31,802 nucleotides of DNA, taken from the NCBI GenBank assembly GCA_043813875.1, contig JBDRKP010000012.1, positions 1 to 31,802 of the forward strand. The letters are read 5' to 3'. Of the stretch, positions 24,001-25,222 are shown in pieces; positions within the stretch are counted from its first letter, which is position 1, and every line of letters begins with the position of its first letter. The position numbers were made by a program. The DNA is from an archaeon (GTDB taxonomy: Archaea > EX4484-52 > B79-G9).

Positions 24001-25222
24001 CCACGCAAAGAACAATCAACTGCTCCTGTAGTCTAGTCCGGTAAGGATGCCGGCCTTTCAAGCCGGTGGCTCGGGTTCAAATCTCTTAAATATTCTAATC
24101 ACACTAATATTTTGAGTGAAAATCCCGGCAGGAGCATTAATTATTTATTTCTTAGAGATACACTTAAAAGATACACAAAAGCAGGGGTCGCCCAGTTGGT
24201 CAAAGGCGCCGGGCTTAGGACCCGGTCTCGTAGGAGTTCGAGGGTTCAAATCCCTTCCCCTGCACTATTCTTCAAATTCATTAATTGAGACCAAAACAGC
24301 CCAAACTCTTATAAATCTAATTCCTCCTAAACAATTATTGCTTCAAACAAAATGATGAGGGTAAGATAGTCTGGTTAGTCCTGGAGACTGTGGATCTCTA
24401 TACCTGGGTTCAAAAATCAAGCCATTTCCAAAAATGCTTGTGTTGAAAATCCCAGCCCTCATCCTTCATCAATCAAGCAGCAGAATATAAGAAATAACAT
24501 AAGAGAACAACACAAGAAAGCACATCTTGTCTAGAAACCAGATAACACATAAAACAGATACAGCATCAATCAGCAACAAAACCACAAAGTATATAAAGGT
24601 TTGCTTGACATATAGTATAATTCGCAACCACGGATTTATTTCTGAAATTCGTAACCAAGCAAGAACTATACTCCGTATAGCTTCTTGAAGCAAAAAATAG
24701 ACATATAGCGAACACATCACAAAGTCGATAAAACCTATCGATTTACACACAAAATAGATGTAGATATGTCAAACAATAAGTACAAGATGTTGGCTCAAAC
24801 ACAGTTTGAGTCAGAAAAAGGTGAAACTTTGTATAACTCCAAAATATCCAAATTGGATATTTGGATCTTAGTGCAGCAATGCATTAAGATCCGCTAATTC
24901 CGGTTGATCCTGCCGGAGATCACCGCTATTGGGGTTCGATTAAGCCATGCGAGTCTTTGGTAGCAATACCAAGGCAAACTGCTGAGTAACACGTAGTTAA
25001 CCTGCCCTTAAGTCTGGGATAATCTCGGGAAACTGAGCATAATACTGGATATGTGATAATGCCTGGAACGGTTTATCACTCAAAGCTTCGGCGCTTAAGG
25101 ATGGGACTGCGGTGGATTAGGTTGATGTTAGGGTAACTGCCTAACATGCCTATAATCTATAGGGGCTGTGAGAGCAGTGGCCCCCAGATGGGTTCTGAGA
25201 CACGAACCCAGGTCCTAAGGGA

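Follow-up and report, generated by a model that had tools for sequence, protein, structure and literature searches.

The window analysed here, i.e., a stretch of 31,802 nucleotides from an archaeon of the phylum EX4484-52, carries a tRNA-Glu(UUC) and a tRNA-His(GUG) gene that are each interrupted once in the T-loop, between nucleotides 59 and 60 (Table 1). The same window holds an intron-less tRNA gene between these two, two tRNA genes with introns at the canonical position 37/38 that serve as internal comparators, and a gene for the RNA ligase RtcB.

Table 1. Features of the window discussed in the text.
Feature	Position	Strand	Evidence and remarks
RtcB RNA ligase gene	379..1677	+	PF01139, E 8.7e-173, 574 bits; open frame 494 aa
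tRNA-Leu(UAA), 37/38 intron	22445..22555	+	ARAGORN -i; Rfam 44.5 bits; second internal comparator
tRNA-Glu(UUC), whole gene	24022-24136	+	Single 41-nt T-loop insertion at 59/60
tRNA-Glu(UUC) exon 1, nucleotides 1-59	24022..24081	+	Sequence; ARAGORN call after splicing
tRNA-Glu T-loop intron at 59/60, 41 nt	24082..24122	+	Constrained fold, orthologues, matching DNA contig
tRNA-Glu exon 2 (U60, T-stem 3' strand, acceptor 3' strand)	24123..24135	+	Sequence; discriminator A73 at 24136
tRNA-Leu(UAG), intron-less, between the Glu and His genes	24181..24265	+	ARAGORN; Rfam 55.6 bits
tRNA-His(GUG), whole gene	24354-24463	+	Single 35-nt T-loop insertion at 59/60
tRNA-His(GUG) exon 1, nucleotides 1-59	24355..24414	+	Encoded G-1 at 24354
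tRNA-His T-loop intron at 59/60, 35 nt	24415..24449	+	Fold, relatives, matching DNA contig
tRNA-His exon 2	24450..24462	+	Sequence; discriminator C73 at 24463
tRNA-Ala(UGC), 37/38 intron, in rRNA spacer	26484..26599	+	ARAGORN -i; Rfam 58.3 bits; comparator for splice-motif register

Without the insertions, ARAGORN calls each gene as a 74-nt tRNA, i.e., tRNA-Glu(ttc), covering the entire construct, and tRNA-His(gtg), which bears out the full-length T-loop-intron genes that the initial annotation had placed at these coordinates. All cloverleaf stems are intact once the insertions are removed, the T-arm of the intron-less tRNA-Leu(UAG), GGGTTCAAATCCC, is the same as the spliced T-arms of both genes, and G-1 of tRNA-His stands opposite C73 (read by eye). 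The junction itself is not fixed by the sequence, as cuts in tRNA-Glu from 56/57 to 60/61 would all give the identical mature tRNA (again by eye).

With their insertions in place, both genes are missed by ARAGORN in default mode and with -i. The Rfam tRNA model gives tRNA-Glu a partial match (24029-24087) whose 29.3 bits are equal to the cut-off, and does not match tRNA-His at all, even at E<=10. Introns at 37/38 are tolerated by ARAGORN -i and the Rfam model because they are located in the anticodon loop; the T-loop site disrupts the highest-scoring part of the tRNA model.

Altogether 14 genes of this kind had been listed for the genome, a 90-contig draft. Our own scan for a 5-bp T-stem, TTCR, an insertion of 10-100 nt and a 7/7 acceptor stem gave 8948 candidates that were spliced in silico at 59/60 and submitted to ARAGORN. 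Of the 31 positive constructs, 17 rows correspond to exactly the 14 claimed loci, and the remaining 14 rows to six already-visible tRNAs in candidate flanks. A reversed-genome control had no positives (0/7453), and a looser scan returned the same loci (control 0/5212). The independent scan agrees with the initial annotation also on the five genes with further introns, and the 30 genome-wide matches of the Rfam tRNA model at E<=10 were reproduced; the coordinates given for Arg-UCG had extended one base too far at either end. In place of the ten genes described as invisible, we find that ARAGORN -i misses 13 of the 14, that 12 lie under the Rfam cut-off and that eight have no match by either tool. 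Being hidden is defined here by ARAGORN and Rfam only, and tRNAscan-SE includes a procedure dedicated to non-canonical introns (PMC8450103).

Beyond the 14 loci, neither ARAGORN nor Rfam finds tRNA genes for Glu-UUC, His, Asp, Asn, Pro or Lys in this genome, which is rated 91.5% complete. We regard the Glu and His loci of the window as genuine tRNA genes, each present in one copy and carrying a T-loop intron at 59/60. Across the genome, 14 introns at 59/60 stand against about 16 ARAGORN intron calls for 37/38, i.e., the T-loop site is about as frequent as the canonical one and not clearly the preferred site as which it had been described. We also considered the 14 introns as copies of one another and rejected this idea, as the best pair is 0.64 identical, which equals the maximum of 300 shuffled pairs.

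When the T-stem and central helix are imposed, the Glu arm forms a strict 3-4-3 bulge-helix-bulge (BHB) motif with UUCA:UGAA as the central helix, bulges AA/U and AA/U, and an inner helix of 3 bp (CUC:GAG). This imposed fold has -9.9 kcal/mol versus -10.7 kcal/mol for the unconstrained minimum-energy fold, in which UUCA and UGAA are both unpaired. The His arm with its intron folds freely at -15.5 kcal/mol (z -4.42; 0/200 shuffles as good) into a structure that has the T-stem, the UUCA:UGAA central helix and the 3-nt 3' bulge AA/U. This free fold favours a central helix of 5 bp, and the 5' bulge is possible with an inner helix of only 2 bp (A-U, U-G) followed by a 1-nt bulge.

Among the 14 genes, Ser-CGA, Glu-UUC and Pro-CGG have strict 3-4-3 constrained folds, and Arg-UCG is strict too in its unconstrained fold. 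A 4x1 loop replaces the 5' bulge in Asp, Pro-UGG and Ser-GCU, position 57 is mismatched in Pro-GGG, Asn, Lys-CUU and Gly-CCC, and Leu-CAA and Arg-GCG give folds with a lengthened central helix. Besides Glu and His, only three of the other 12 genes are strict (four if Arg-GCG is included), which makes roughly five to seven strict and seven to nine relaxed motifs among the 14. The initial claim that every intron forms a strict motif therefore holds for Glu, Ser-CGA, Pro-CGG and Arg-UCG, possibly for His, and fails for these seven to nine. Phylum-wide, the strict form is possible in 48 of 85 distinct arms. In the 37/38 comparators of the window, nucleotides 32-35 pair with intron nucleotides n-5 to n-2 (seen in the fold of tRNA-Ala, with the same register in tRNA-Leu(UAA)), and the 3' bulge consists of the last two intron nucleotides and nucleotide 38. 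The register of the 59/60 introns relative to the T-stem is that of the 37/38 introns relative to the anticodon stem. These features support the view that the T-loop introns bear the exon/intron pairing predicted for a substrate of the splicing endonuclease EndA.

RtcB, the sole PF01139 match in the genome, is of a family established as the joiner of EndA-cut tRNA halves (PMC5829648) and would presumably have this role here. EndA is encoded on another contig (C67) by an open reading frame of 209-237 aa, one unit with PF02778 (46.8 bits) and PF01974 (96.3 bits). A second EndA or a beta subunit was not found, as the genome has no other match to PF02778 or PF01974 at E<=10 and E<=1, and the single gene suggests a homotetramer. 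The protein aligns end to end with the alpha4 enzyme of M. jannaschii (E 1.5e-26; residues 11-171 of 1a79). Its catalytic Tyr and His are present, and Ala occupies the position of K282 of the ARMAN-2 triad (numbering from a figure legend of PMC6379350). The position of the canonical Lys is A or S in 36/36 EndAs of the phylum and A, S or T in 120/120 nearest clusters; the organisms named as sources of its nearest relatives (DPANN group, Aenigmarchaeota, Nanohaloarchaea, Nanoarchaeota) are simply in keeping with a DPANN origin.

Between the catalytic Tyr and His, EndA carries a lysine-bearing insert of seven residues at an alignment position where the enzymes of N. equitans and ARMAN-2 also have inserts. 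Going by this position, the insert probably corresponds to the L3 loop of Kaneta 2018. It is kept in 36/36 EndAs of the phylum. The single EndA of this lineage is without the canonical catalytic lysine, but has a conserved lysine loop. We rejected the insert as a tracker of T-loop introns because it is present in all 36 proteins, including those of two families (f4 and f6) whose genomes have no sites of the intron pattern. By gene layout and sequence, EndA is alpha4-type, but its Tyr-His-Lys triad is incomplete, and activity cannot be assumed from homology alone given the Ala at the Lys position. What had been called a single alpha-type EndA is indeed one gene and one unit; the lysine-rich insert and the Ala at the Lys position suggest that it is something other than the plain alpha type with strict substrates.

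In a rival explanation, the introns are real, a plain alpha4 EndA cuts only strict motifs (Glu, probably His), and the relaxed-motif genes are either dead or dependent on a further factor. The single EndA gene and its end-to-end alignment with the M. jannaschii enzyme would agree with this, alpha4 and alpha'2 types have been reported to require the strict 3-4-3 form (PMC3239211), and motifs as relaxed as seven to nine of the 14 are reported not to be cut by plain alpha4 enzymes (PMC3239211, PMC5829648). However, the relaxed genes are the only copies found for Asp, Asn, Lys-CUU, Pro-UGG and Pro-GGG and can therefore hardly be dead, the insert positioned as in N. equitans and ARMAN-2 is present in all 36 EndAs of the phylum, and L3-bearing alpha4-type EndAs of DPANN archaea have been linked to more disrupted tRNA genes (Kaneta 2018, PMC5829648). 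We consider this explanation unlikely.

The splice motif is visible also in the variation between genomes. Position 57 and intron nucleotide n-5 are paired at 86 of the 90 pattern sites of the phylum (59 A-U, 19 G-C, 8 G-U), n-5 is C only opposite G57, and splicing of 82 of the 90 sites yields a tRNA that spans the junction. Counted over distinct arms, 81 of 85 are paired versus 21 and 41 if the partner position is shifted, though all these sites come from related sequences and are not independent. At the His site, the window has A57:U where five relatives of the genus have G57:C, i.e., UUCG:CGAA, with intron bodies unrelated to that of the window, and its T-stem pair 50:64 is U-A versus C-G in the same relatives (both pairs read by eye). 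Such covariation makes sense only if a BHB is read, which speaks against the idea that the insertions are not removed by EndA but are kept as an enlarged T-loop, leave by another nuclease/ligase route or splice themselves. An EndA without the canonical triad lysine would be in keeping with that idea, but its Tyr and His and both Pfam domains are intact, and an insert of 18-46 nt would break the seven-nucleotide T-loop that the tRNA fold requires. Self-splicing group I/II introns were rejected on length, as a ribozyme core takes hundreds of nucleotides and the insertions in the window have 35 and 41 (18-46 across the set), and Rfam finds no family but tRNA over 24022-24462. That the insertions are not removed by EndA is, in our estimate, very improbable.

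The Glu intron has orthologues in seven genomes of the genus, among which the exons show 0-1 differences in 73 positions versus 4-8 in 41 for the intron. For His, the corresponding values are 8-10 in 73 versus 18-24 in 38-49, and this pattern of conserved exons and drifting introns indicates, at the level of sequence, selection on the exons of both genes. Identical DNA is present in contigs of other runs, i.e., X1 record 1 matches 23900-24122 and X4 record 14 matches 24272-24560, each with 0 differences; the DNA contigs from the four runs contain no joints (shares are small, and X1 is possibly the source sample). Among the runs listed as RNA, none matches the stretch 22400-24890. That the Glu and His loci are decaying pseudogenes, or their insertions artefacts of assembly or binning, is hardly credible, as the neglect of both genes by ARAGORN and Rfam and the draft state of the genome are outweighed by stems that are intact after removal, exons that are kept while introns drift, the absence of alternative copies in ARAGORN and Rfam searches, intron-bearing DNA recovered in other runs' contigs, and the occurrence of the Glu gene with its intron in seven genomes.

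From the observed gene anatomy and splice motif, the covariation, the stronger conservation of exons than of introns, and the fact that both enzymes are encoded, we conclude with a probability of roughly 85% that the Glu and His genes are the only detectable copies for their tRNAs and that each is split at 59/60 by a protein-spliced intron processed by EndA and RtcB. Cleavage, ligation and the exact cut sites are predictions from sequence and would run as follows. In the precursor, the T-stem (49-53/61-65) would form the outer helix, and U54-U55-C56-A57 would pair with UGAA located 3-6 nt before the 3' end of the intron as a central helix of 4 bp. One 3-nt bulge would comprise A58-A59 and the first intron base, the other the last two intron bases (AA) and U60, with the intron hairpin closing the motif. 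The single alpha-type EndA, with its lysine-bearing insert adjoining the active site, would cut both bulges, and RtcB would ligate the halves to a product whose T-arm, GGGUUCAAAUCCC, equals that of the intron-less tRNA-Leu between the two genes. The insert of EndA may also be what allows the relaxed motifs of the other genes.

The T-loop intron pattern occurs in 28 of the 42 genomes of the phylum and at two sites of a reversed control, both as initially reported; the 92 sites that had been counted become 91 in the totals of our site table. It is absent from families f4 (0/4 genomes) and f6 (0/5), so that the T-loop is not the preferred intron site of the phylum as a whole. In these two families, the Rfam tRNA model finds a near-normal 24-48 tRNAs per genome, versus only 9-34 in the other six of the eight families. 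Undercounting of tRNA genes holds with ARAGORN for the genome studied here, but not for the entire phylum as had been proposed. In a preprint on EX4484-52, one type genome is given with 20/20 tRNAs and another with 15/20 (10.1101/2025.08.05.668663). In the sister genus g8, one intron family of 46-47 nt is common to seven tRNA species. A world-wide scan with the pattern gave at least 120 loci, the matches listed being mostly chance bacterial ones. Among the matches listed, nine yield a tRNA after splicing, eight of them across the junction, and all of these eight come from the 10 archaeal-titled records (0 from the 110 others). The 59/60 signature is found, among the matches listed, in records of Micrarchaeota, Aenigmatarchaeota, Woesearchaeota and Thermoplasmata.

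A wider reading that we offer tentatively, as a possibility that is more probably wrong than right, is that 59/60 in this DPANN lineage is a landing site of short mobile BHB introns whose spread is tolerated by a rebuilt EndA. The near-universal T-arm (GGTTCRAAUCC) would be the common target and at the same time contribute the exon side of the motif, which might let one intron spread by copying to tRNA genes whatever their identity; the intron family of the sister genus in seven tRNA species would be the support for such copying. The invariant lysine of the loop, in a G-x-K motif, might replace the canonical Lys in catalysis and broaden the substrate range.

Recognition of T-loop introns matters for how such genomes are judged. 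ARAGORN -i covers 13 of the 20 amino acids in this genome; with the 14 genes, Asp, His, Pro, Asn and Lys are gained and the total reaches 18, the number at which the MIMAG high-quality standard sets its threshold for tRNAs. With six of eight families at 9-34 Rfam tRNAs, quality calls based on tRNAs and inferences on codon usage for such DPANN genomes are unreliable without an intron-aware search. Beyond this, our analysis contributes a lineage in which a single non-canonical site is about as numerous as 37/38, as well as clear covariation in the splice motif of a T-loop, and the intron family and EndA raise questions about how tRNA introns spread and how the active site of an endonuclease is rebuilt.

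The closest known system is that of ARMAN-2 (Candidatus Micrarchaeum acidiphilum), where introns at 59/60 have been described in pre-tRNA-Cys(GCA) and, together with one at 53/54, in pre-tRNA-Pro(GGG) (Fujishima et al. 2011, PMC3239211). As reported, it shares the T-loop site, a DPANN host, strict as well as relaxed BHB motifs, genes missed by default finders, and an EndA whose C-terminal domain has an additional insert with lysine. However, the ARMAN-2 enzyme is described as a three-unit epsilon2 EndA with full Tyr-His-Lys, while the one studied here has one unit and Ala at the Lys position, and two such genes are named there versus 14 here. A similar comparison applies to the L3-loop alpha4-type EndAs of DPANN archaea and Hadesarchaea, for which an association with larger numbers of disrupted tRNA genes was reported (Kaneta et al. 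2018, PMC5829648) and which likewise have one unit and an insert in the C-terminal region. Their catalytic triad is called well conserved in that study, whereas the Lys is missing from the EndA described here and from its 120 nearest clusters. The same authors predicted that incomplete tRNA sets conceal disrupted genes, and the present genome is such a case.

For Crenarchaeota/Thermoproteales, non-canonical BHB introns have been described that transposed from one tRNA gene to another (Marck & Grosjean 2003; Sugahara 2008; Fujishima 2010; cited via PMC4090602 and PMC4033280). Likenesses in these accounts are the many non-canonical sites, 59/60 among them, with as many as three introns per gene, and similar introns across tRNA identities, as in the sister genus g8; their sites are scattered over the tRNA, whereas 59/60 dominates the non-canonical class here. 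Canonical 37/38 introns have the same architecture, i.e., the loop-closing stem as outer helix, the first four loop bases paired with n-5 to n-2, and a 3' bulge of the last two intron bases and the first base of exon 2, but lie in the anticodon loop rather than the T-loop. A preprint on Asgard archaea reports that called introns concentrate at 37/38 and the T-arm (10.64898/2026.10.13.758758) and, as here, that standard annotation overlooks many intervening sequences and that T-arm insertions are mostly at canonical motifs, although these archaea belong to another superphylum, have an (alpha-beta)2 EndA, and their missed introns are mostly in the D-arm. With 59/60 introns on record in ARMAN-2 (PMC3239211) and among the listed non-canonical intron sites of archaea (PMC4090602), the initial annotation was right to present its findings as a new lineage and a new scale and not as a new kind of intron.

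Immediately upstream of the rRNA operon, the window carries a tRNA cluster that houses the interval 24022-24463 (see the table). ARAGORN calls only tRNA-Leu(UAG) there, by default or with introns allowed, while the Rfam tRNA model matches just the 5' part of tRNA-Glu (24029-24087, 29.3 bits at a cut-off of 29) and does not match tRNA-His even at E<=10. Both genes are nonetheless readable as tRNAs with an insertion in the T-loop between nucleotides 59 and 60. These T-loop introns are real in our judgement and well supported by comparative evidence, with their splicing being predicted.

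Features of the tRNA cluster and rRNA operon, and the predicted splicing enzymes (positions in the window unless a contig or locus is named; G000:C67 is contig C67 of the genome under study, L121 a second handle of that locus)
Feature	Position	Strand	Basis or remark
RtcB (RNA ligase)	379-1677		the genome's one RtcB gene
tRNA-Glu(UUC) exon 1	24022-24081		sequence reading
tRNA-Glu(UUC) insertion, 41 nt	24082-24122		sequence reading
tRNA-Glu(UUC) exon 2	24123-24135		sequence reading; A73 at 24136
tRNA-Leu(UAG), intron-less	24181-24265		sequence reading; ARAGORN
tRNA-His(GUG) exon 1	24355-24414		sequence reading; encoded G-1 at 24354
tRNA-His(GUG) insertion, 35 nt	24415-24449		sequence reading
tRNA-His(GUG) exon 2	24450-24462		sequence reading; C73 at 24463
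16S rRNA	24897-26365		
23S rRNA	26740-29668		
EndA (splicing endonuclease)	G000:C67:38197-38907 = L121:1474-2187	minus	outside the window; PF01974, PF02778

Several further features surround these genes. The gene for subunit N of RNA polymerase (PF01194, E 3e-26; 23800-24036, + strand) has no stop codon ahead of tRNA-Glu, and its reading frame closes, as judged partly by eye, at TAG 24034-24036, i.e., 15 nt into the tRNA gene. An archaeal RNase P RNA (29726-30081, + strand, 153.5 bits) follows the 23S rRNA gene at a distance of 58 nt, with tRNA-Arg(UCU) coming next at 30387-30463; Rfam reports no 5S rRNA in the window. Two tRNA-Ala(UGC) genes (19442-19564 and 26484-26599, + strand), one of which sits in the 16S-23S spacer, each carry an anticodon-loop intron, and the two intron sequences differ.

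In both tRNA-Glu and tRNA-His, U54-U55-C56-A57 can pair with a UGAA that is followed by just the last two bases of the insertion. Together with U60, these two bases (A, A) would form a 3-nt bulge adjoining the T-stem, and the opposite 3-nt bulge comprises A58, A59, and the first intron base. We checked this reading against the window's own 37/38 introns (spacer tRNA-Ala and tRNA-Leu-UAA), where nucleotides 32-35 pair with intron bases n-5 to n-2 (n being the last intron base) and the 3' bulge consists of the last two intron bases and nucleotide 38. Because these comparators share the register, 59/60 is the exact T-loop counterpart of 37/38. Cuts from 56/57 through 60/61 would yield one identical product for Glu, whose junction at 59/60 is chosen by the splice motif and not by sequence alone. 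With the T-stem and central helix imposed, Glu forms a strict (3-4-3) bulge-helix-bulge (BHB) with inner helix CUC:GAG at -9.9 kcal/mol; in its free fold (-10.7 kcal/mol), UUCA and UGAA are unpaired. The free fold of His contains T-stem, central helix, and 3' bulge (-15.5 kcal/mol, z -4.42, 0/200 shuffles as good), and its inner helix beside the 5' bulge has 2 bp only. A strict BHB had been ascribed to each T-loop intron of this genome in the initial annotation, which goes too far: only Ser-CGA, Glu-UUC, Pro-CGG, and Arg-UCG (its class read from the free fold) are strict among 14, and His can be. According to the folds, a 4x1 internal loop replaces the 5' bulge in Asp, Pro-UGG, and Ser-GCU, position 57 is mismatched in Pro-GGG, Asn, Lys-CUU, and Gly-CCC, and the central helix is lengthened in Leu-CAA and Arg-GCG. 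Across the phylum, the strict form is possible in 48/85 distinct arms.

The list of 14 loci itself was reproduced by a whole-genome scan that did not draw on it. A candidate had to show any 5-bp stem followed by TTCR, then 10-100 nt of inserted sequence and the strand that closes the stem, plus an acceptor stem with all 7 bp formed inside a span of 260 nt. Every candidate was spliced in silico at 59/60 and run through ARAGORN, which called 31 constructs among 8948 candidates compared to 0/7453 in the reversed genome. Exactly these 14 loci account for 17 of the called rows, and six ordinary tRNAs lying in candidate flanks account for the other 14. A looser scan (4/5 stem and 6/7 acceptor pairs) returned the same loci and none new (control 0/5212). 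Multiple introns in five genes, as claimed, are confirmed too: Pro-CGG and Leu-CAA give a full-length tRNA only once an additional D-region insertion is removed as well, and Arg-UCG, Lys-CUU, and Gly-CCC have an additional intron in the anticodon loop. The tRNA-Leu(CAA) gene (G000:C48:5991-6218, + strand) is interrupted three times (D region, 37/38, T-loop), and the 60-nt intron of its anticodon loop contains the words GTGATGA and CTGA, which we take to be reminiscent of C and D boxes.

Of the phylum's 42 genomes, 28 contain the T-loop pattern, against 2 sites in the backward control, as reported before, though the table sums to 91 sites rather than 92. After splicing, a tRNA spans the junction at 82/90 sites. 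The sole central-helix pair that the pattern leaves free, 57:n-5, is formed at 86/90 sites (59 A-U, 19 G-C, 8 G-U; 4 mismatches), and C at n-5 occurs only opposite G57. Among distinct arms it is paired in 81/85 versus 21 and 41 with the partner slid by one or two bases, counts that serve as support and not as a probability since relatives are non-independent. By eye, the window's His gene has A57:U and a U-A pair at 50:64 of the T-stem where five genus relatives have G57:C and C-G. Between Glu and six relatives, exons differ at 0-1/73 and introns at 4-8/41 positions; for His and its genus relatives, these differences are 8-10/73 and 18-24 of 38-49, so that a single genus has three unrelated intron bodies at this site. 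At both genes, selection acts on the exons and not on the introns. The same intron-bearing sequence also occurs in DNA contigs of other sequencing runs without differences or joints. One groundwater contig (record 10 of run X2) matches the tRNA-Glu body at 24050-24083 with 3 differences and diverges just after 24083, as if a relative had another insertion at this T-loop site (a small share, one contig).

The T-loop had been called the preferred intron site of the whole phylum, which is an overstatement: two of its eight families have no pattern sites (f4, 0/4 genomes; f6, 0/5), with 24-39 and 25-48 tRNAs by Rfam, respectively, and in the genome under study the 14 T-loop introns are about matched by some 16 anticodon-loop intron calls of ARAGORN. 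The T-loop pattern explains only part of the tRNA deficits: Rfam finds 11, 13, 16, and 17 tRNAs in G016, G037, G024, and G041 (all 91-96% complete), which have 1, 2, 1, and 15 pattern sites. In G016, G037, G024, and G017 (9-16 Rfam tRNAs, 78-95% complete), there are just 1-3 sites. Such genomes with few Rfam tRNAs yet few sites imply that other hidden disruptions of tRNA genes must remain. As judged from sequence, the T-loop intron signature extends beyond the phylum: at least eight tRNAs with such an insertion are among the 120 matches listed in a world-wide scan, under record titles naming Thermoplasmatales, Thermoplasmata, Methanomassiliicoccus, Micrarchaeales, Micrarchaeota, Aenigmatarchaeota (two), and Woesearchaeota.

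Clustering 91 T-loop introns at 70% identity gave one family of 15 introns of 46-47 nt in eight genomes of the sister genus g8 (L159-L175; G023-G030), spanning seven tRNA species (Gln-CUG, Gln-UUG, Gly-UCC, Glu-CUC, Arg-GCG, Arg-UCU, and Lys-UUU), and a second of 7 introns in six tRNA species of four genomes. For g8 tRNA pairs of different amino acids, median identity is 0.81 for introns versus 0.62 for mature tRNAs, and in 74/75 pairs the introns resemble each other more than the mature tRNAs do, which suggests that this family was copied between tRNA genes. In Thermoproteales, such a pattern has been described as transposition of introns (Fujishima 2010, as cited in PMC4090602). The 14 introns of the window's genome show no likeness among themselves; its Arg-UCG intron clusters with introns of relatives labelled His(atg) by ARAGORN and Leu-CAA in our reading.

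In the accessible text of earlier work, 59/60 is listed as an archaeal non-canonical intron site (PMC4090602), introns at 59/60 are drawn for ARMAN-2 tRNA-Cys and tRNA-Pro (PMC3239211), and T-loop BHB motifs are mentioned (PMC6379350); the Glu/His case therefore adds to an established type. One paper on EX4484-52 contains no occurrence of "intron". T-loop introns are of practical use in tRNA annotation. The non-canonical intron routine of tRNAscan-SE 2.0 is described with a training set from Crenarchaeota/Euryarchaeota and Thaumarchaeota (PMC8450103), and a 2026 preprint states that in some Asgard families it overlooks 30% of the intervening sequences and that the introns called lie mainly at 37/38 and in the T-arm (10.64898/2026.10.13.758758).

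The genome has a single EndA gene, with no second match to PF01974 at E<=10 or PF02778 at E<=1, that encodes a one-unit protein with both domains (called product 209 aa) alignable along the whole M. jannaschii alpha4 enzyme. Its catalytic Tyr and His are spaced by 16 residues versus 9 in M. jannaschii due to a 7-residue insert (NPYKxGxK); the extra stretch as a whole reads GVNPYKxGxK, and the insert is present in 36/36 EndAs found in the phylum. Lysine-bearing inserts occupy the same alignment position in the alpha subunit of N. equitans and in the enzyme of ARMAN-2. Of the catalytic triad (numbered after a figure legend in PMC6379350), Tyr and His are kept, whereas the third position (ARMAN-2 K282) is Ala here, A or S in 36/36 phylum EndAs, and A, S, or T in the 120/120 nearest protein clusters, 118 of which were parsable and invariably have the loop's G-x-K lysine (118/118). 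In a broader set of 151 sequences (the best 150 representatives at 50% identity and our own protein; 116 parsable), the triad Lys is kept in 105/116 and absent in 11, namely 8/20 with a long Tyr-His spacer and 3/96 with a short one. We infer that the catalytic lysine may have been relocated in this EndA. A literature search on splicing endonuclease, catalytic triad, DPANN, and lysine found only Kaneta et al. 2018 (PMC5829648), whose accessible text ties a loop termed L3, found C-terminally in alpha4-type EndAs of DPANN, to more disrupted tRNA genes and predicts hidden disrupted tRNA genes in DPANN. The insert would correspond to this L3 by alignment position only, and while Kaneta et al. describe the triad as well conserved, the enzyme of this archaeon lacks the third-position Lys.
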